DNA from: Patescibacteria group bacterium
GTDB lineage: Bacteria; Patescibacteriota; Minisyncoccia; Phycocordibacterales; PALSA-1337
Length of the DNA: 64,000 nucleotides
Direction of reading: 5' to 3'
Assembly: GCA_038064415.1 (NCBI GenBank)
Contig: JBBTTD010000003.1
Location: 2,597 to 66,596 of the forward strand
Positions 8,392 to 63,622 of this stretch are shown here, piece after piece; position 1 is the stretch's first letter, and every line of letters starts with the position of its first letter. The notes below the pieces were generated by a model. That model had not been told where the DNA came from and did not search any database. It saw only the letters and a list, made by a program, of their open reading frames with translations. A program made the translations under genes and the position numbers.

Positions 8392-8931
8392 ATGCGACAT
8401 CATACGATTGAAGTATCACCATTTTTTTATTTTCTTTTTAATGATAAGAAAATTTCCTGGTTTTGGATTATAATACGATTATATGTTGGTTATGAATGGC
8501 TTATTGCCGGTTGGTCAAAAGTTACGAGTGATGCTTGGGTTGGTTCTGGCGCTGGTTCCGCGCTTTTAGGTTTTCTCAATGGGGCGTTAGCCAAGACGGT
8601 TGGCGCGCACCCTGATGTTCAGGGGTGGTATGCTTACTTCTTGCAGAGCGCCGTTGTGACACATCCCGCTTTTTGGTCCAATTTGGTTGCTTGGGGGGAA
8701 TTGGCGGTTGGTATAGGTCTTATTATCGGTGCTTTTACGGGAATCGCGGCATTCTTCGGACTTTTTATGAACCTGAACTATTTACTTGCCGGTACCGTAA
8801 GTAGCAATCCAGTGTTGTTTACTCTTTCTATTGGTCTGGTTTTGGCGTGGAAGGTCGCGGGTTACATTGGCGCAGACAAATATCTCTTACCCAGGTTGGG
8901 TGTTCGTCCTGATAATGTTGTAGGGGGGTGA
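8392..8931 (+). CDS. DoxX-family membrane protein
   Basis: 4-TM protein, motif WIIIRLYVGYEWLIAGWSKV and overall DoxX-like organisation. Confidence 0.5.
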   Translation: MRHHTIEVSPFFYFLFNDKKISWFWIIIRLYVGYEWLIAGWSKVTSDAWVGSGAGSALLGFLNGALAKTVGAHPDVQGWYAYFLQSAVVTHPAFWSNLVAWGELAVGIGLIIGAFTGIAAFFGLFMNLNYLLAGTVSSNPVLFTLSIGLVLAWKVAGYIGADKYLLPRLGVRPDNVVGG

Positions 8932-9002
8932 TAAAACTGGCTATTCCCAAGAATTCCTTTAGGTGGTACAATCATATAGTTAATAAATAAACAGTTAAAA
9001 AC

Positions 9003-9257
9003 ATGCCAAAAGCAAATTCAGCGTTTATGAAGCCTTTGACCGTTAGTGCCGATTTAGCAAAAGTCGTGGGTAATGGTCCAATGCCTAGGTCAGAAGTGGT
9101 CAAGAAGCTTTGGGTCTATATCAAGGGCAAGAATCTTCAGGATCCAAAGAACAAGCGTAATATTGTCGCTGATGAGAACTTGAAGAAGGTATTTGGAGGC
9201 AAAGATGTGGTGAATATGTTTGAGATGACCAAACTGGTTTCCAAGCATCTTTCGTAA
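9003..9257 (+). CDS. SWIB/MDM2-domain protein
   Basis: Full-length match to SWIB consensus: KPLTVSADLAKVVG...RSEVVKKLWVYIKGKNLQDPKNKRNIVADENLKKVFG...FEMTKLVSKHL. Confidence 0.7.
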   Translation: MPKANSAFMKPLTVSADLAKVVGNGPMPRSEVVKKLWVYIKGKNLQDPKNKRNIVADENLKKVFGGKDVVNMFEMTKLVSKHLS

Positions 9258-9271
9258 GATAAAGGAAAAGA

Positions 9272-9455
9272 AGCAACAAAAAGTACATGTGTTTTGATGT
9301 GCCTGCGGAACTCGCTTCTGAAATTACTAAATAAAAGGCTCAGGAATCACACAAAGCAAAGCTTTGGTGATTCCAACGCCATTCGCCTTTTATTAAGTAA
9401 TTTCTAGTCGCTCAGACAGTCCTCGGCAATCAAAACACATGTACTTTTTGTTGCT
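9272..9455 (+). repeat. Copy 1 of 125-nt structured repeat element (core 9302..9426) nested in a perfect 27-bp inverted repeat (9272..9298 / 9429..9455)
   Basis: Core begins CCTGCGGAACTC and ends CAGTCCTCGG; ~85-90% identical to cores at 38131..38255 and 47901..48025; lies between convergent genes. Confidence 0.8.
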
Positions 9456-9476
9456 CCTTAATTCTCCTTCTGTTTA

Positions 9477-54658: not shown

Positions 54659-55342
54659 ATGTACATTGAAAGGTCAGTTATGAAAATGAGACAACTGTTG
54701 GAGTTGGCGAATAAAGATAACCCGATGCTGGTTAAATACGCCAAGCGCTGGGTTGCGACAAGAAACCCGTCCGTGAAAGAGGAAGCCAAGTTGCCCGACC
54801 CGGTGACGGCGGCGCGTGCGTGGTCTAGAAAATCCCGTCGTAACTTTCTGATTACGATAACACTACTCATTCCGTGTTCTGCACTTGCGTTGGCCACTAG
54901 GGTTGCACACGACGTTTGGCATGTCCATTTTGGCTGGTTTACCATCTTCCCCATTCTGGTGTTTGTTCTTTTCTTTTTGGATAGTTTGAGGGATTTCTTT
55001 CACAAACCAAAAGACATCATACGGTTCCTTGAGACCATGACACTGCTTGAGTGGGTTCCTATCAAGCGGCGGGGAGGAAATATCACACAACTTGGTCCGT
55101 TCCCCGCAGATGAGGACTGGGATCCTGAGGAAGCCTCAAGTCTCTTGACATCGCACCTGTGCGCGTTGGGAGACGAGATTCGTCGAATGGAAGAAAAAAG
55201 GTCTGATATTCCATGGCGCGTCTCGGAAGTTGAAGCGAAAATCGCGAAATTGAGAAAGATGTTTGCGGAGAGGCATCATTTCTTTCGACGGTTTTTTCAC
55301 GAAATTCCAGAAGGTTGGGACTACTACTTCAAAAAGTACTGA
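54659..55342 (+). CDS. Hypothetical membrane protein on GC-rich islet
   Basis: ORF track; 2-3 TM helices; local GC clearly above window average; competing antisense ORFs judged less likely. Confidence 0.35.
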   Translation: MYIERSVMKMRQLLELANKDNPMLVKYAKRWVATRNPSVKEEAKLPDPVTAARAWSRKSRRNFLITITLLIPCSALALATRVAHDVWHVHFGWFTIFPILVFVLFFLDSLRDFFHKPKDIIRFLETMTLLEWVPIKRRGGNITQLGPFPADEDWDPEEASSLLTSHLCALGDEIRRMEEKRSDIPWRVSEVEAKIAKLRKMFAERHHFFRRFFHEIPEGWDYYFKKY

Positions 55343-55561: not shown

Positions 55562-55648
55562 TGGTGCCCGGGGTGGGAATCGAACCCACATGACCTTGCG
55601 GTCGACAAATTTTAAGTCTGTTGCGGCTACCAATTACGCCACCCGGGC
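55562..55648 (-). tRNA. tRNA-Leu (anticodon TAA), long variable arm
   Basis: Manual fold of reverse complement: acceptor GCCCGGG/CCCGGGC, anticodon loop CTTAAAA, long variable arm, T-arm GTGGG-TTCGATT-CCCAC, CCA encoded. Confidence 0.8.
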
Positions 55649-55677
55649 AATACTAGTCATTAATTACTAATAACTAG

Positions 55678-55753
55678 TGGGAGGCCACGGCGGGAATCGA
55701 ACCCGCGATAGCGGTTTTGCAGACCGCGGAATTACCACTTTTCTACGTGGCCC
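55678..55753 (-). tRNA. tRNA-Cys (anticodon GCA)
   Basis: Reverse complement folds with anticodon stem GCGGT/ACCGC, loop CTGCAAA, T-arm GCGGG-TTCGATT-CCCGC; exact end coordinates +/-2 nt. Confidence 0.7.
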
Positions 55754-58657: not shown

Positions 58658-59524
58658 ATGGCGAAATTATCATACTCGCAAAACTATATAAACAACAAAC
58701 AACTCATAGAAAAATTGCTGATGTTTGTTGATTTTAATTTAGCCGATACAATCATAGAGATTGGGCCAGGTATGGGTGTAATTACCGACGAACTTATTCA
58801 ACACAACAAAGAGGTTGTGGCTGTTGAGGCCGACCAAAAACTTTTTTCCAAATTACAAAAACGATATGCTACTGTAAAAAACCTTACATTAGTCAACACA
58901 GATTTCTTGAAATATTTGCTTCCAGAAAAACCTTTTGTTGCTGTCTCCAATGTTCCGTTTAATATCACTGCAAATCTAATCCGTAAAATTACCGACGAGA
59001 AATCGAAACTATCCGTAGCATACCTTATTGTGCAGAAAGAGGCTGCTATTAAATTCGTTGGGGCACCATATGCACACTCTCCACTTCTTTCACACCTCTT
59101 ACAGATTAATTTTGAAATAAGGTGTCTTATGGATATATTACGAACAAACTATAGCCCGAGACCACGCTTTGACACAACCTTTCTGATGATTAAAAGACGA
59201 GAAAACCCTATATTTGATGAACCGGAGGCCGTGCAGTTTAAAAACTTTTTGGTTTACATATTTGAGCGACGCAAGCCACAAATTAAAGATGCTCTAAAAA
59301 GCTTGATGAGTAACCTGCAAGTCAAAATCATCTTGAGCAACCTTAATATTCCGGCAGGTACGGAGATAAAGAAAATAATGTTCGCTGATTGGGTAAAGAT
59401 ATTCAACACTTTCGTGCATCACGCGCCAGAAAAGTCAAAAAAAATAATAAGTGGCTCGTACGCGAAACTCCTTGCGGAACAGTTACAGCTAAAAAAGATA
59501 AATCGGTCGCGAGCAGACACCTAG
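58658..59524 (+). CDS. rRNA adenine N6,N6-dimethyltransferase family protein (KsgA/Erm family; N-terminal motif closer to Erm)
   Basis: SQNYI (cf. Erm SQNFI / KsgA GQNFL), SAM-binding IIEIGPGMGVIT, VSNVPFNIT (N[LI]P[YF]NI), LIVQKE. Confidence 0.65.
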   Translation: MAKLSYSQNYINNKQLIEKLLMFVDFNLADTIIEIGPGMGVITDELIQHNKEVVAVEADQKLFSKLQKRYATVKNLTLVNTDFLKYLLPEKPFVAVSNVPFNITANLIRKITDEKSKLSVAYLIVQKEAAIKFVGAPYAHSPLLSHLLQINFEIRCLMDILRTNYSPRPRFDTTFLMIKRRENPIFDEPEAVQFKNFLVYIFERRKPQIKDALKSLMSNLQVKIILSNLNIPAGTEIKKIMFADWVKIFNTFVHHAPEKSKKIISGSYAKLLAEQLQLKKINRSRADT

Positions 59525-59695
59525 CAAAATAAAAGGGGCTCAAGGAAAATTTATTCCTACAAGCCCTGAGCTTACTCCACGCTTTTTGCCTGCTCGCTAA
59601 GAAAAATTGTAATGGATTGACGGAATCAAATAGATAATGTATTATACATTCAGCCCGTAAAGTACATTCAAAAAACCATAGAAAGGAGATGAGTC

Positions 59696-60472
59696 ATGAA
59701 AAAGCACCAGCGTATCTGGAGTAGAAAGGTTTTGAAAGTTGTTGAAACCTACGACCGTAATCGAGATCTGTTTCTGTTCGGGGTCACTGGAGACCTCGAT
59801 AATCTCGGGGTCTTTGTCTCACGATACGGACGTCCATTGGCGGAAAATCTTGTAGATATCTACAATCGCCTAATTGGTGCGTTCATGTACGGGTTCATTA
59901 AGAGGCACCCGAAGGCGATTCCGGCTTTTTGCATGATTCCTTCGGGAGAAGAAATCTTTGCTACCGGAGTAGCGACTAACCAGTCGGTCGTGAACGAGTT
60001 TTTCTTACTGTTGGAAGGTGAAGTAAATAACTTCATCAAGGAGAACGCTCCACTCGCGGATGAGGATGTTACCGTATCGTTCGGCTGCAAAATCTTCTCA
60101 GGCGACACAATCGGTTCCGCGACATCACGCCTCGTTGGGTTGGTAAGAAAACGGCGAGTTCAAGAAGCTTCATCGGCATATCTTGAACTTATGCTTGCTA
60201 TGCGTCGCGAGCTTGCCTACAAACTTGACCGAGCAAAGTTTAGCACTCTCAACGCTTCCGACCTTAATCTTGTTATGTTCTTTCGGAACATAGTGTACGC
60301 CAAACTTCAGAACTACAAGAAAGAAACAAAGGAAGCGCTCGTAACGCTTGCTGATCGGCTAAGTCACGATGTCGAACTTCGGGAACGTCTTCAAATCATG
60401 GTGTTAAATTCCGAATACGGCATAGTGGCCGAAGGTGCCAAGTTCATCAACGAACTTCTTGCAGAGAAGTAA
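59696..60472 (+). CDS. GGDEF-like nucleotidyl cyclase-fold protein with non-canonical SGEE(I)F active-site motif
   Basis: GDLDNLGVFVSRYGRPLAENLVDIYNRL aligns to GGDEF DxDxFKxxNDxxGHxxGDxxL; PSGEEIF in position of GG[DE]EF; strong RBS AAAGGAGATGAGTCATG; GC ~50%. Confidence 0.45.
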   Translation: MKKHQRIWSRKVLKVVETYDRNRDLFLFGVTGDLDNLGVFVSRYGRPLAENLVDIYNRLIGAFMYGFIKRHPKAIPAFCMIPSGEEIFATGVATNQSVVNEFFLLLEGEVNNFIKENAPLADEDVTVSFGCKIFSGDTIGSATSRLVGLVRKRRVQEASSAYLELMLAMRRELAYKLDRAKFSTLNASDLNLVMFFRNIVYAKLQNYKKETKEALVTLADRLSHDVELRERLQIMVLNSEYGIVAEGAKFINELLAEK

Positions 60473-60473
60473 A

Positions 60474-60506
60474 AAGGCCGAATAGAACGTGTTCTATTCG
60501 GCCTTT
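60474..60506. terminator. Bidirectional terminator (14-bp perfect stem)
   Basis: AAGGCCGAATAGAAC-GTG-TTCTATTCGGCCTT between convergent genes. Confidence 0.6.
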
Positions 60507-61575
60507 ATTGTTGGTACGGAGACTCCGCAAGCAGCAATTCGCCGGTTCCGACAACGATGGAAGCGGTAATCCCAATCGGCAAAGTGAGCTTGTACGCACA
60601 ATGGCCGGCAGGAAAACCGTGAAAAAGAGGCAATCCCTCTCCGAGCAGTTCCGAAACTTCCCGAAGAAAGTTTCTCACCTGATCTGGATCTCGTAATTCC
60701 GGATATAGGAGATCTGCCCGGTCTGTTCTCTCGGCGAGCGAGGAAAAGACGACTGCCGCGGCATGGGAAAGATTACAGTGAGCATTGAAATGCTGGAGTA
60801 GTTCGACAATTGTCTCAAAAGACATATCCAGCGAATCAAGCATGACAATCTTATCAGTTACATCAGGTTTCAATCCTTCCTCGCAAAGTCTCACCAGTAC
60901 TGCAAGAGACCCAATCAAGATTTGTCCGGTTACATTCCGGCCCAAACTGGGAGTGTAGTAGAAGTTATCTCTATAGCGGTCATTTGTGATGAGTCTTGGA
61001 TCACGGTAAATGTTGCGAATTGTCACCGGGAGTGTTGGCTTTCGAGGGGCAGCAAAAAAGTGGTATGCTTCATTTTTACTTAAGCCATTCCTTCCGTGCC
61101 AATCCCACTGGAGCATATTCCAAAAGCTCCTCACCGTAAATCTGTTCTCAAGCTTTGATGCCTTTGGGTTCAGGAAGTTGAGATGCGGACCAAAGAACGT
61201 TACTATGCCCGCTCTCTCGGCGATCGTCACCACAAGAGCTGAAAGCTCGCTTGAACCGCAGATGATCTTCGGATGACTAGCCAACACATCGTAATCAATC
61301 AGTAGAAGAACATCGTAGATTCGCGCACCGCCACAAAGAGGCAGTATTGCTTTCACTTGCGGGTCGGTAAACGCCGCCTGTAATGTTTCAGTACACTTCC
61401 GGACATCCTCCCAGCCGCTTTCGATTACCATATCCTTAACAAAGAATCCAAGTTCCTCAAGATATGCTTTGACATATCCGTGTTGGTTTTTGAATCGTTC
61501 CGGAAGTACACCAGCCGGATTGACCAAAGCCACCCCATCTCCAAACTGTAGGGGGCGCGGAATTTTCGAGATCAT
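60505..61575 (-). CDS. Peptidase S66 (LD-carboxypeptidase LdcA / microcin C7 immunity MccF-like)
   Basis: N-terminal GDGVALVNPAG, nucleophile region CGSSELSAL (cf. GxSDxTxL), C-terminal GFPAGHCAYKLTLPIG (catalytic His); GC ~52%. Confidence 0.6.
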   Translation of the reverse strand: MISKIPRPLQFGDGVALVNPAGVLPERFKNQHGYVKAYLEELGFFVKDMVIESGWEDVRKCTETLQAAFTDPQVKAILPLCGGARIYDVLLLIDYDVLASHPKIICGSSELSALVVTIAERAGIVTFFGPHLNFLNPKASKLENRFTVRSFWNMLQWDWHGRNGLSKNEAYHFFAAPRKPTLPVTIRNIYRDPRLITNDRYRDNFYYTPSLGRNVTGQILIGSLAVLVRLCEEGLKPDVTDKIVMLDSLDMSFETIVELLQHFNAHCNLSHAAAVVFSSLAERTDRADLLYPELRDPDQVRNFLREVSELLGEGLPLFHGFPAGHCAYKLTLPIGITASIVVGTGELLLAESPYQQ

Positions 61576-61594
61576 TTGCCACCTCCTTTTTGGT

Positions 61595-62311
61595 TTAACG
61601 AGATTTGTGAAAGTACAAGGTTACCTGTTTCTTTTTAACATAAGGGGGACGAATTGTAAAGGCCTTTTCTTTAGTTACTGGTATGGAACCCTTTAGTTTT
61701 TCGTCAATGTATATCACTGCACATTTGTCTTCAATGGCAGTAACAATAGTTTTTATCTTGCGAATTTCAAGAGGGAATGGATTCGCGGTTTTATAATGAG
61801 GGATTACGACACCTTTAAGTATGCCAAGTCCTTTTTTGAGGCGAGTTTTTTCATTCTTGTCGCTGTCTATGAGATATTCATACCAGACAACACATCCCGC
61901 GCTTAATCCGGTAAGAATAGTTCCTTGTTGATATGCCGACTGTATGAGAGGAATAATTTTGTGTCTCTCCCATGTCGAAAGCAAAATATCGTAATCACCG
62001 CCACCAACATAAATAATATTGGTACTTGTGATGTTTTTTTTTAATACTTTTGGAGAGATGATTTTTTTACTAAACAAACGCAAAATTTTTACTTGACATC
62101 CCAACTTTTCATATACTTGTCGAAAGGCGGTAGAGTATACTGGTAAATCTTTACTTCCGGTGGGTATAAATAAAACCCTCGGACTTTTTTTGCCACTTTC
62201 TTTAATAATAAATTTATCTATGGAAATTGTTTCGCCCAAGCGCAAAAGACCTCCGCCGATGGGAATAATTTTATGTTCTATATTTGATTTTAGCTTTTTA
62301 TTAGGTTTCAT
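61595..62311 (-). CDS. Peptidase S51 (dipeptidase E / cyanophycinase-like)
   Basis: PRVLFIPTGS, IYVGGGDYDILL, GLSAGCVVW (Ser nucleophile in GxSAG). Confidence 0.6.
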   Translation of the reverse strand: MKPNKKLKSNIEHKIIPIGGGLLRLGETISIDKFIIKESGKKSPRVLFIPTGSKDLPVYSTAFRQVYEKLGCQVKILRLFSKKIISPKVLKKNITSTNIIYVGGGDYDILLSTWERHKIIPLIQSAYQQGTILTGLSAGCVVWYEYLIDSDKNEKTRLKKGLGILKGVVIPHYKTANPFPLEIRKIKTIVTAIEDKCAVIYIDEKLKGSIPVTKEKAFTIRPPYVKKKQVTLYFHKSR

Positions 62312-62520
62312 TGTGATGTTATAATATCATCATTAAAGATTCTCGTAAATTCTTGCACTGGGTTAGTGTACAGTTGACAGTAGATTGAAGCTTGAAAACA
62401 ATGAATACTGAAGCCGAATCAATCAGAAACTCATGGCTTGCTGACATCAAACGGCGTACCATCGAGTGTATGACAAATCTAGCGGTGAATAAGTTCACCC
62501 ATTTCTACACTCATTTTACT

Positions 62521-62768
62521 TTCCCCTCCACCCTCACCTCCGTAATTTTCAAAAAATCCTCTAGAATTCCTGTCAATTTTTCAACCGACGCTTCTGACAT
62601 GGTACAAAGAAAAGACACTTCAACGTGCTATTAGTTCCAAATACAAACCTGATTTTTCGGCGACTTTTGTATACAAAAAATAATAATAACTATTTTCTTT
62701 ATTTTTTATTCCTCCACCCTCACCTCCGTAATTTTCAAAAAATCCTCTAGTATTTCCGTCAATTTTCC
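62521..62768. repeat. Two ~60-nt direct repeats (62521..62582 and 62707..62768) separated by 124 bp
   Basis: Shared CCTCCACCCTCACCTCCGTAATTTTCAAAAAATCCTCTAG(A/T)ATT(C/T)C(T/C)GTCAATTTT. Confidence 0.7.
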
Positions 62769-62924
62769 GACAGATTTTTCAGATTCTTTCAACACTTTCT
62801 GTAGTTCCTCGCAACCACGCACACGAATCTTTTCTCCACTTTTGTCGTTCTCATCACCACCCACCCCCTTTCGTATCTATTCCAACTGCCACCGCAGGGC
62901 AATCAACGGTGTCCGTAAATCATG

Positions 62925-63155
62925 CTATGCCGCAGTAATCAACTCATTCTTAGTTTCATCCAACTTCTCCAGTTCACCACGAGCTTTCTTTTCAACCTCG
63001 TAAGCTCGGGTAATCTCTTTGGTTTGTTCCGTAACTTTCATCTCTAAATGCTCATTTAAGTCCTTGACTTCCGCGTACGCATACTCAAGATCTCTAGCTA
63101 ATTGCTCAATATGTTCCCGTTGCTTAATCTCCTTCAATGTGCTGCGAATGAGCAT
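62925..63155 (-). pseudogene. Coiled-coil 76-aa fragment, possibly truncated N-terminal piece of a larger protein
   Basis: Heptad-rich sequence ending abruptly (...ELITAA*) directly abutting the direct-repeat region. Confidence 0.25.
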
Positions 63156-63622
63156 AATCTAGTTATCAACACTTTTACAGGAATGGGTGGGGTTATTCAG
63201 GCTGTTGACAAGCTGTGGAAAAGGTGCAATCATTTCAGCAGACAGAACATTGAGGACAACATATGAGTTCTTTATGAGATCTGTCCAACAAAGGAAAAAT
63301 TATGCCTGAAGGCACATGTGACGGAGATGGACAGGGGCAGACTGTAGTTCGGAAGTGGATTCGAATTCCTCCTCCCCCTCGTCAATAGTTTACCTCTATG
63401 AGGAAGAACCGCTAGGCAATTGAAACCTATGGCTCGTAACAACCGTATTTGGTAATCCCTAAAGACTCTTATGTTTATCACTGAAAACAGCGGTAATGGT
63501 GGCTCGAACAACACTGGTTCAAGTGGGACTCATGGCAGTAGCACTGGCAACGGTGGCAAATAGTGCCAAAGAAGATTGGTTCAAACGGGGATGGTTCATT
63601 TCATGTTCCATCCCCTAATTTT

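Follow-up and report, generated by a model that had tools for sequence, protein, structure and literature searches.

A predicted palm-fold nucleotidyl cyclase encoded with MccF-type hydrolase partners in a three-gene cassette of Patescibacteria, a probable new module of nucleotide signalling or conflict

Small nucleotide-signalling modules are central to present research on bacterial immunity. To our knowledge, the synthase of CBASS, type III CRISPR, Thoeris and Panoptes always comes with an effector bearing a dedicated sensor domain. CBASS, type III CRISPR and Panoptes keep one synthase and exchange its partners (PMC12657218). CARF-domain partners go with 40% of the genes for mCpol, the minimal CRISPR polymerase of Panoptes systems (PMC12657218; PMC13577387). 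Thg1 is related to both GGDEF and Cas10 (PMC2904730). A quite different chemistry is that of MccF and MccG, which belong to the peptidase families S66 and S51, respectively. Both hydrolyse aspartamide-nucleotides, the latter with a Ser-His-Asp catalytic triad, and stand-alone homologues of both confer resistance to microcin C, McC (PMC9239234). We describe here a locus where the two worlds meet; literature searches combining MccF or S66 with Cas10, GGDEF or CBASS brought up no account of such a pairing.

The window, that is, the whole stretch of 64,000 nucleotides that was analysed, comes from a Patescibacteria group bacterium. It carries a conserved block of about 2.78 kb (59575..62354, spanning genes of both strands), which blastn aligns at 81-84% nucleotide identity with cassettes of other Patescibacteria contigs (L001, L003, L015 and others), the similarity ending at both borders. 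Gene 1 (59696..60472, plus strand, 258 aa) faces gene 2, coding for an S66 hydrolase (60505..61575, minus strand, 356 aa), itself preceded by gene 3, coding for an S51 peptidase (61595..62311, minus strand, 238 aa); the cassette has two promoters of its own and one bidirectional terminator. The preliminary description had delimited a two-gene unit at 59525-61590. Both of its open reading frames are as it described them, but it had cut off the S51 gene, which we include because blastn places the limits of the conserved unit beyond it.

Flanking genes are unrelated and differ from genome to genome, while the cassette proteins are 75-91% identical between different CPR lineages. Patescibacteria are the main home of the module, which is patchy there and decays as a unit, with a split S66 gene in L009 and gene-1 fragments in L038 and L041. 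We conclude that it is a self-contained, horizontally spread set of three genes. The earlier idea of a mobile island is deduced solely from the changing flanks and from the close similarity between lineages; the cassette has neither an integrase nor a transposase. No gene-1 homologue appeared in the viral contigs and plasmids searched. The accompanying argument from base composition was overstated. Instead of a rise from about 39% to about 50% GC, we found 46.6% for 59525-61590, where the window averages 41.0% (sd 3.2% between segments of equal length) and 6.3% of such segments match or exceed this value, and the S51 gene has only 35% GC; a GC-rich foreign island was therefore rejected as primary evidence. 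The surroundings in the window are made of housekeeping genes, not of a defence island, a context that counts against reading the cassette as a signalling module. An Erm-like methyltransferase gene lies nearby; considered as a possible member of the cassette, it was rejected because it is outside the block conserved in blastn.

Expression signals are part of what is conserved. A predicted sigma-70-like promoter of gene 1, TTGACG-17-TATTAT, is found at 59617..59645 of the plus strand (10/12 match in a promoter scan); its TTGACG box and the 5′-UTR motif AGYACATTCA are common to the window, L001, L003, L017 and L018. The only Rfam matches near the locus are two tRNAs, so that this conserved 5′-UTR is not explained by a riboswitch. 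The strong ribosome-binding site noticed at the outset, AAAGGAG (59682..59688, plus strand), read from the sequence, stands 7 nt upstream of the ATG and is kept in related cassettes. Between the convergent genes lies a perfect hairpin (60473..60506, no strand assigned) that would act as an intrinsic terminator for both units. An inverted-repeat scan gives it 15 pairs, slightly more than the 14 bp first counted, with a 4-nt loop, and it sits between an A-run and a T-run, hence T-runs on both strands, and blastn recovers it in other cassettes at 94-97% identity. On the minus strand, inside the conserved end of the cassette, a promoter scan finds TTTACG-17-TG-TATTAT (62321..62349), which resembles a promoter and would serve the S51-S66 operon. 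Its -10 box ends 10 nt ahead of the S51 ATG, a spacing which suggests a leaderless or near-leaderless mRNA. A 7-codon ORF (MYYTFSP) in the leader of gene 1 was considered as a microcin-like precursor and discarded, since it shares positions with the -10 box there and lacks a ribosome-binding site.

Gene 1 belongs to a distinct family of predicted palm cyclases, of 85 clusters among 1.84 billion representatives, which is assigned by none of Pfam, NCBIfam, PADLOC and PHROGs. PDB sequences, searched with the protein alone and with two profiles, yielded nothing beyond a spurious uL29 match and sub-threshold GGDEF matches, the GGDEF match of the family profile being weak (E = 0.1). The fold is more telling. 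The AlphaFold (AF2) model (pLDDT 92.1, pTM 0.85) predicts a nucleotide-cyclase palm, nearest to GGDEF and Cas10, at residues 26-134 (59771..60097, plus strand), with the order beta-alpha-beta-beta-alpha-beta, followed by a C-terminal helical domain with conserved basic residues (136-258; 60101..60469, plus strand). The latter is predicted to comprise helices 136-151, 155-185, 193-224, 226-233 and 245-256; the extra region that had been noted there does exist, with about 120 aa instead of about 90. The strings DLDNL, YGRPLAENL, PSGEEIF and VTVSFG, on which the first alignment to a GGDEF palm was based, are all present in the translation. Inside the palm core, on the plus strand, lie the motifs D33xD35 (59792-59800) and S83-G84-E85-E86 (59942-59953). 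G84 and E85 never vary in 45 sequences with identities as low as 21%, and conservation is at least 90% for D33, D35 and E86. In the hairpin motif S83-G84-E85-E86-I87 the family has Ser, Ala, Cys or Gly at position 83 and Ile or Val in place of Phe. In the helical domain R170 and K181 are invariant and D178, F182, R197 and K208 at least 90% conserved, in a comparison that includes the distant branch linked to CARF partners, to which we return below. With acidic motifs conserved throughout the family, gene 1 is not the inactive GGDEF remnant that might have been feared.

How, then, does it compare with the described palm enzymes? GGDEF domains carry a C-terminal ADxALYxAKxxGRN region, in place of which gene 1 has its different helical domain. 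They are its top Foldseek matches (4urq, 4zve, 4yme; E about 1e-4), S-G-E-E-I aligning with G-G-E-E-F and SFG with SxG. Yet the Pfam GGDEF model (PF00990) matches neither the window protein nor any of 31 members at E <= 10, and there are no sensory or EAL/HD-GYP partners, so that "GGDEF-like" holds for the fold but not for membership of the Pfam family. Cas10 chains follow in Foldseek at 5e-4 to 7e-3; they give the longest structural alignments, of at most 198 columns, which run past the palm into the helices. To this similarity of fold are added matches to PF22335 (Cas10-Cmr2_palm2) in 6 of the 31 members, weak and below the gathering threshold (best 8.6e-4), and the CARF-type readers of the distant gene-1 branch. 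Unlike Cas10, gene 1 has a single palm, lacks HD and zinc domains as well as crRNP partners, and has neither a CRISPR array nor cas genes in its vicinity. With mCpol it shares the status of a stand-alone single-palm enzyme outside CRISPR loci, with a partner gene next to it in a compact mobile operon. Two acidic positions of the metal-binding kind are spaced by about 50 residues in both, D11 and D63/D64 in the Cst mCpol (PMC13577387), D33/D35 and E85/E86 in gene 1. The differences are an additional N-terminal helix and the helical domain of about 120 aa in gene 1, and SGEE where mCpol has GGDD. Neither the mCpol structure 9NWN nor an mCpol-type model matched gene 1 in sequence, and 9NWN is absent among the best 50 fold matches. 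The partners described for mCpol are membrane effectors (S-2TMbeta, CARF-2TM, SAVED-2TM) or HEPN proteins, whereas those of gene 1 are soluble S66 and S51 hydrolases or a CARF-sigma54 activator; in the window cassette they are S66 and S51 only, with no S-2TMbeta, CARF, SAVED or HEPN.

Gene 2 codes, as first proposed, for an S66 peptidase (PF02016, 3.4e-18; PF17676, 3.7e-12) of the MccF/LdcA kind. Sources label the cassette S66 proteins LdcA. Similarity points rather to MccF, by a modest margin: phmmer against PDB gives 6e-17 to 1e-11 for MccF-like proteins and 1e-7 to 5e-6 for LdcA, while the best 29 Foldseek matches of the two-domain model (pLDDT 94.9) all belong to the MccF clade, with TMq 0.71-0.75 against 0.63-0.69 for LdcA. 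Many of these relatives were crystallised with AMP or aminoacyl-nucleotide analogues. Among the partners of gene 1, S109 is kept in 27/28 and H325 in 28/28, the third position, at about 243, being D or E; in the window Asp replaces the canonical S66 Glu, in parallel with the triad of MccG (PMC9239234). The cassette proteins nevertheless form a separate small subfamily of about 70 clusters, with signatures of their own (FxGPHxxF, W152, N188, GHxxYKLTxP) and a sharp drop in score before ordinary LdcA, and L021 has an ordinary S66 protein separately from its cassette copy. The product of gene 3 (PF03575, 1.4e-34) belongs to the S51 family of PepE, cyanophycinase and MccG. S137 and H172 are present in 20/20 cassette-linked homologues, the third acidic residue being variable, and PDB relatives are equally distant (1.5e-5 to 4e-3). 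The resemblance to PepE and cyanophycinase is of low significance. Genes 2 and 3 thus represent the same two peptidase families as MccF and MccG, with a conserved pair of serine and histidine; unlike the microcin operon, the cassette has no mccA, mccB or mccC.

The S66 gene adjoins gene 1 in 29/34 distinct loci with unrelated flanks, where the preliminary description had left room for a pair never seen again, and a reverse look-up starting from S66 retrieves gene 1. Pairwise identities of the two proteins covary (Mantel r = 0.95, 0/2000 permutations): the S66 partners are inherited together with gene 1. Next comes usually a second hydrolase, which may be S51, a Ser_hydrolase or an S33-like protein; two-gene versions do without it (L021-23, L046), and in one lineage S51 is fused to the gene-1 homologue (P0068/L012). 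An apparent enrichment of aminoacyl-tRNA synthetase or CCA-enzyme neighbours was dismissed, as 3/8 annotated loci is within chance in gene-dense genomes of about 1 Mb. Distant members of the gene-1 family behave otherwise. In three independent cases (L029, L042, L044/45) the gene is followed, with no hydrolase partner, by that of a CARF-sigma54-HTH activator, the CARF domain being of the Cas_NE0113 type, above the TIGR02584 cutoff. This activator, to judge from its domains, is a nucleotide-signal receptor; an identity with RtcR was rejected, since the RtcR model matches its AAA+ part alone. Partners of this kind recall the CARF proteins that go with 40% of mCpol genes, and the association argues that the gene-1 family makes a nucleotide signal, which could differ between the CARF-linked and the S66-linked branches.

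Taken together, the cassette probably represents a new kind of module for nucleotide signalling or for conflict. Among specific scenarios we lean, tentatively and at somewhat less than even chances, towards a horizontally transferred signalling module made of a stand-alone cyclase with a pair of MccF-type hydrolases as its output arm. Gene 1 would be a Cas10/GGDEF-type palm enzyme, presumably a homodimer by analogy with single-palm cyclases, condensing NTPs into a small, possibly cyclic, oligonucleotide. The MccF-clade S66 hydrolase would be its obligatory partner and output enzyme, and the S51 peptidase a frequent but replaceable second hydrolase. The nucleotide-accommodating region of the S66 active site would read the product and thereby turn on, or off, the cleavage of an aminoacyl- or peptidyl-(nucleotide) substrate at its amide link. 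The purpose would most likely be conflict, in defence against phages or competitors, perhaps with an inverted logic akin to that of Panoptes. Our data show the fold and the conservation of the catalytic residues, a unit of three genes that strictly occur and are inherited together, the fusion, and CARF as the other kind of partner; the nature of the product, the sense of the control and the biological role are inferred. Several observations go against it. PADLOC finds no match for the cassette; S66 and S51 have no recognised sensor domain (CARF, SAVED, beta-barrel), the S66 model being fully accounted for by the MccF fold; and we know of no S66- or S51-family peptidase documented as a cyclic-nucleotide effector. 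The destruction of aminoacyl-nucleotides by members of these families would, by analogy, fit a hydrolase acting on the product of gene 1, or resistance, about as naturally.

The first of these two possibilities, unlikely in our eyes, sees the genes as a toxin/immunity or synthase/hydrolase pair, with a logic similar to that of GGDEF-EAL or toxSAS-SAH pairs: gene 1 would make, or nucleotidylate, an amide-containing nucleotide conjugate, toxin or messenger, whose carboxamide would be cleaved by S66 and S51 in the way MccF and MccG cleave processed microcin C. The activity of these two enzymes on aspartamide-nucleotides speaks for it, as do the MccF-like character of the cassette S66, the catalytic Ser and His kept in both hydrolases, the exchange of the second hydrolase for other small serine hydrolases and the fusion of gene 1 with S51, akin to synthase-hydrolase fusions. 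Cas10 has moreover been found to conjugate ATP to SAM (work cited in PMC13577387), which indicates that palm enzymes can take acceptors other than NTPs. However, palm cyclases form O-P phosphodiester bonds, none being known for an N-acyl phosphoramidate or an amide; the cassette comes without a precursor-peptide gene, an MccB/ThiF-like enzyme or an exporter; and the lack of a hydrolase partner in the CARF-linked branch implies that the product of the gene-1 family does not inherently need an amidase.

The second possibility, which we consider improbable, is a mobile cassette for resistance to antibiotics of the peptidyl-nucleotide, aminoacyl-nucleotide or nucleoside type, where S66 and S51 detoxify the drug while gene 1 attaches a nucleotide to the hydroxyl of its ribose or reports that it is there. 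It has for itself the McC resistance that stand-alone homologues of MccF and MccG confer, a distribution such as resistance genes typically show, with its high protein identity across CPR lineages amid unrelated flanks, and recurring resistance-like neighbours, the Erm-like gene of the window, macrolide-glycosyltransferase-like and MacB-type ABC genes in L006, and a double-ABC ATPase in L021. These neighbours, however, vary from site to site and lie outside the conserved unit. Known drug nucleotidyltransferases have a different fold, the CARF-sigma54 partner in the distant branch speaks for signalling more than for modification of a drug, and the strict placement of gene 1 beside this S66 subfamily would be unexplained if hydrolases sufficed.

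A housekeeping operon for salvage of peptides or murein peptides, with an LdcA-like S66, an Asp-dipeptidase-like S51 and gene 1 as a metabolic regulator or unrelated neighbour, is very improbable. CPR bacteria do rely on scavenging, the S66 proteins bear the LdcA label, S51 shows its faint resemblance to cyanophycinase and PepE, and the cassette sits among housekeeping genes. Yet the S66 subfamily is rare, closer to MccF and sharply set apart from ordinary LdcA; L021 has an ordinary S66 besides its cassette copy; distribution is patchy and horizontal, with decay as a unit; and the gene-1-S51 fusion and the covariation of gene 1 with S66 show that gene 1 does not stand beside them by chance. 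Least credible of all, gene 1 might be a Thg1-like 3′-5′ nucleotidyltransferase or an RNA-end-modifying enzyme tied to RNA repair and not a cyclase, as its similar plan of palm plus helical domain in about 260 aa, the position of the L012 fusion downstream of archease and RtcB and the RtcR-like look of the CARF-sigma54-HTH architecture might evoke, but the Thg1 Pfam model matches 0/31 members at E <= 10, no Thg1 structure figures among the best 50 Foldseek matches, the activator has a Cas_NE0113-type CARF domain and matches the RtcR model in its AAA+ part alone, and RtcB is next to the family in one lineage only.

Coming back to the signalling module, the three enzymes are small soluble proteins and therefore directly testable in vitro and in E. 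coli. What is at stake is a palm-cyclase family tied to hydrolases for which the only relatives studied in depth are enzymes that cleave aminoacyl-nucleotide antibiotics. Its main hosts are Patescibacteria, and little is known of their means of defence and signalling. On a wider and unlikely reading, the gene-1 family would be an unrecognised class of signal synthases, its S66-linked branch handling a new kind of small molecule, either a nucleotide messenger with direct control over amidohydrolases of the MccF/MccG type or a palm-made amide-linked aminoacyl-nucleotide that both hydrolases destroy, while the sister branch would run a CRISPR-independent path from cyclase to CARF to sigma54 transcription. 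In the former case MccF/MccG-type enzymes would be the first peptidase effectors read via their own nucleotide pocket. If the link between cyclase and hydrolases is mechanistic, then either soluble serine amidohydrolases join the repertoire of effectors or a new amino-acid-nucleotide chemistry exists, and a natural role would be suggested for many orphan MccF- and MccG-like enzymes.

An S66 hydrolase gene adjoins gene 1, which encodes a palm-fold protein, in 29 of the 34 distinct loci that carry a full-length gene-1 homologue, as tallied from exact-protein look-ups, 27 loci in species-representative genomes and a tblastn census. The recurrence of the pair, a check proposed in the preliminary description, is thus borne out, and a reverse search from two members of the S66 subfamily (36-40% identity) agrees, meeting again S51 followed by S66, convergent with a gene-1 homologue. 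Across 25 loci the pairwise identities of gene 1 and of S66 vary together (Mantel r = 0.95; 0 of 2000 permutations as high). The arrangement is variable. Besides the window type, where gene 1 faces S66 preceded by S51, we find gene 1, S51 and S66 co-directional (loci L032-L036 and L040 of other genomes); a gene 1-S51 fusion (P0068, 488 aa) overlapping the start of S66 (L012); gene 1 convergent with S66 preceded by a Ser_hydrolase (PF06821; L025-L027, L030); gene 1 followed by S66 with an S33/alpha-beta-hydrolase neighbour (L024, L028); and gene 1 with S66 only (L021-L023, L046). The cassette also decays as a unit: S66 is split into two ORFs in L009 (6815-7877), and gene-1 fragments stand without S66 in L038 and L041 (around 6001), from two gut 'Alphaproteobacteria' MAGs.

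Several loci have peculiarities of their own. L035 holds a second, tandem S66 copy (8413-9474) with its nucleophile changed from Ser to Ala. The fusion gene (L012:6001-7467) belongs to a same-strand run (L012:897-10334) that also encodes archease, RtcB and two further proteins, 564 and 598 aa long, without Pfam or NCBIfam match. The most divergent S66-linked locus (L046:2554-7732; gene 1 at 23% identity) has an overlapping SAM methyltransferase gene after the pair and a divergent leucyl-tRNA synthetase gene before it. L001, L003, L048 and L050 likewise have a class I synthetase or CCA-enzyme gene close to the cassette, though no more often than chance would allow in genomes this compact, and enrichment of these neighbours was discarded.

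In the window, gene 1 (59696-60472, +; 258-aa ORF) and gene 2, the S66 hydrolase (60505-61575, −; 356-aa ORF), are present as first described, together with the gene-1 ribosome-binding site (AAAGGAG, +, 7 nt 5' of the ATG) and the perfect bidirectional terminator between the convergent stop codons (60473-60506; 15 pairs, a 4-nt loop, T-runs on both strands). The two-gene extent was too short, however: directly behind S66, and on its strand, a third gene encodes an S51 peptidase (61595-62311, −; PF03575 at 1.4e-34), and blastn delimits a conserved block at 59575-62354, with 81-84% nucleotide identity to related contigs and similarity ending at both edges. The claimed rise in GC was likewise overstated, 59525-61590 standing at a modest 46.6% against a window mean of 41.0%, a value that 6.3% of same-size windows match or exceed. 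Within this one conserved cassette S51 has 35% GC (GC3 30%) and gene 1 and S66 have 47-48% (GC3 49-51%); though they travel together, the three genes may differ in their history. A promoter scan gives promoter-like sites for gene 1 (TTGACG-17-TATTAT, 59617-59645, +) and for S51-S66 (TTTACG-17-TG-TATTAT, 62349-62321, −), and the gene-1 promoter box is shared between cassettes, as is a 5'-UTR motif. On the − strand, 10 nt separate the end of the -10 box of the S51-S66 site from the start codon of S51 (62311-62349); S51 has no Shine-Dalgarno sequence and S66 a strong AAGGAGG site. The S51 message may be leaderless.

Gene 1 is best treated as a palm cyclase-fold family of its own. Neither Pfam, NCBIfam, PADLOC and PHROGs nor the PDB sequences offer a match to it. 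Among 5.8 billion proteins it finds 49 clusters, most members being about 258 aa long and those with a named source being hypothetical proteins of Patescibacteria/CPR MAGs; a family profile run exhaustively over 1.84 billion cluster representatives finds 85, with full-length members of 230-315 aa save two of 425 and 488 aa. As seen through these searches, the family is small and sharply bounded. The AlphaFold2 model built from the family alignment (pLDDT 92.1, pTM 0.85) places a helix at the N terminus, then a beta-alpha-beta-beta-alpha-beta palm core (26-134), then a helical domain (136-256). The structural check suggested earlier, a Foldseek search, ranks GGDEF domains first in the PDB (E ~1e-4, about 150 aligned columns), then Cas10/Csm1 chains (up to 198 columns), while a viral structure library also gives diguanylate cyclases. 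In fold gene 1 is of the GGDEF/Cas10 kind, but it does not pass the GGDEF profile test, none of 31 members matching that model, and the GGDEF label first given to it needs correction. The sole Pfam-level signal is a weak match of 6 of the 31 to PF22335, the second palm domain of Cas10, and a diverse gene-1 profile aligns with GGDEF domains at E = 0.1 only (SGEE on GGEEF, SFG on SxG).

R46, G84, E85, R170 and K181 are invariant in 45 sequences, down to 21% identity, and conservation is 90% or more at D33, D35, E86, F129, G130, D178, F182, R197 and K208. Two acidic motifs are what is expected of a two-metal palm enzyme. Both being conserved, they are under selection, and gene 1 is not a degenerate remnant; the inactive GGDEF relic envisaged as a refutation is ruled out. 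Every branch keeps the conserved Arg and Lys residues of the helical domain, from which we infer that these take part in catalysis or substrate binding. The spacing of the acidic motifs, about 50 residues, is that reported for D11...D63/D64 of one mCpol cyclase (PMC13577387), mCpol being the minimal CRISPR polymerase of Panoptes systems. Placement of gene 1 within mCpol is unsupported by sequence or by the fold matches listed.

CARF domains serve to sense signals of the cyclic oligoadenylate type. Three independent distant gene-1 members without S66 (L029, labelled Zixiibacteriota; L042; L044/L045) are followed by a gene whose product joins an N-terminal CARF domain of the Cas_NE0113 type (113 and 104 bits; trusted cutoff 80.65) to a sigma54-interaction AAA+ domain and a Fis-type HTH (HTH_8): L029:6154-8058, L045:1656-3359, L042:3421-4608 and L044:2886-4584, the last a split copy. 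They are not RtcR orthologues, the RtcR model matching the AAA+ part only. This pairing is the strongest contextual evidence that the gene-1 family, like Cas10 and mCpol, produces a nucleotide signal.

Gene 2 is an MccF-clade-like hydrolase: by sequence, MccF-clade proteins (6e-17 to 1e-11) come ahead of LdcA (1e-7 to 5e-6), and for its model (pLDDT 94.9) the top 29 Foldseek matches are MccF-clade structures (TMq 0.71-0.75; LdcA 0.63-0.69). Cassette-linked S66 proteins keep the nucleophile S109 (27 of 28), H325 (28 of 28) and an acidic third residue (Asp in the window), with the signatures FxGPHxxF, W152, N188 and GHxxYKLTxP, which the ordinary S66 of L021's genome lacks. After about 70 clusters the score of an S66 database search falls sharply, from 164 to 83 bits, so that the partner S66 proteins stand apart as a subfamily, comparable to gene 1 in rarity. 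Gene 3 belongs to the S51 family, with S137 and H172 in 20 of 20 homologues and a variable third acidic position. Processed microcin C is an aspartamide-nucleotide whose carboxamide bond is hydrolysed by S51 enzymes ('MccG') as well as by the S66 enzyme MccF, and stand-alone homologues confer resistance (PMC9239234, 2022); both hydrolase families thus include characterised members acting on aminoacyl-nucleotides.

The flanks of the cassette differ at all loci, and in three genomes tRNA genes lie within ~100-400 nt of one end (tRNA-His, L015:64-136; tRNA-Gly/Lys/Arg, L003:8703-8938; tRNA-Ile, L018:9025-9097), which hints at tRNA-proximal insertion; in the window tRNA-Leu and tRNA-Cys (55562-55753) are 3.8 kb away. 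The transferable unit of the preliminary description agrees with these flanks, yet no integrase was seen with the cassette, which is thus a putatively mobile unit. Viral contigs, plasmids and PHROGs contain no gene-1 homologue. Elsewhere the window has the genes of an ordinary chromosome (DnaE, iPGM, RNase HII, IF-2, RbfA, an acyltransferase). To the right of the cassette, a histidine-kinase-like frame (62355-63160, −) has in-frame stops (…ELITAA*HDLRTPL…) and a 73-nt direct repeat (62525-62597/62711-62783; 86% identity, 186-nt spacing) through which part of the peptide occurs twice; apparently these are the remains of a gene at the edge of the cassette. A 227-aa ORF (54659-55342, +; ~50% GC) without family match adjoins the two tRNAs and, further upstream, an 891-aa protein (41919-44594, +) ends in a Peptidase_S74 (endosialidase chaperone) domain, typical of phage tail fibres.

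What does the cassette do? The mechanism that we infer, and favour tentatively, is that the gene-1 product would control the S66 hydrolase, S51 or its substitutes being accessory to it, in a role that is probably conflict-related; control might be activating, or inhibitory as in Panoptes. This draws on the nucleotide-accommodating active-site region of MccF-clade enzymes, many of whose crystal structures contain AMP or aminoacyl-nucleotide analogues. If gene 1 is a synthase family-wide, S66 fills the place of the CARF protein in the sister branch, and the two-gene versions offer no other candidate receiver. The main rival, which is more doubtful, makes the gene-1 product, or a conjugate made by gene 1, the substrate of the hydrolases: the known MccF/MccG chemistry and the fusion of synthase with hydrolase speak for it, but the type of bond formed by palm enzymes and a CARF branch without any hydrolase speak against it. 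A resistance cassette is unlikely. Stand-alone MccF/MccG homologues do have that function, the spread is resistance-like, and so are some neighbours, namely macrolide-glycosyltransferase-like and MacB-type genes in L006 and, 5' of the cassette in the window, an Erm-like rRNA adenine methyltransferase gene (58658-59524, +); these, however, lie outside the conserved unit and differ by site. The methyltransferase scores better against the broad Erm 23S model (207.3 bits, cutoff 212) than against KsgA/RsmA (160.4 bits, cutoff 171), and may be either a resistance gene of the Erm type or the KsgA of this genome. Housekeeping salvage is quite improbable, and gene 1 as a Thg1-like RNA-end enzyme more improbable still.

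Of the idea first put forward, a transferable unit pairing a cyclase-fold nucleotidyltransferase with an MccF-like hydrolase, the core survives both of the refutations envisaged for it; its GC argument, its GGDEF label and its omission of S51 need correcting. Control of S66 by the gene-1 product would make the cassette one of the synthase-plus-effector nucleotide modules, a kind already known, with a type of partner unreported in the literature searched, where we found no paper linking MccF or S66 with Cas10, GGDEF or CBASS. In section 12 of PMC12657218, the partners of mCpol are S-2TMbeta, CARF-2TM, SAVED-2TM and HEPN proteins, with no peptidases or sigma54 activators, whereas the gene-1 family is associated with peptidases or with a CARF-sigma54 activator. 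The latter association, which is not among the mCpol partners described there, would, if the family does signal in this way, couple a cyclase to transcription independently of CRISPR.
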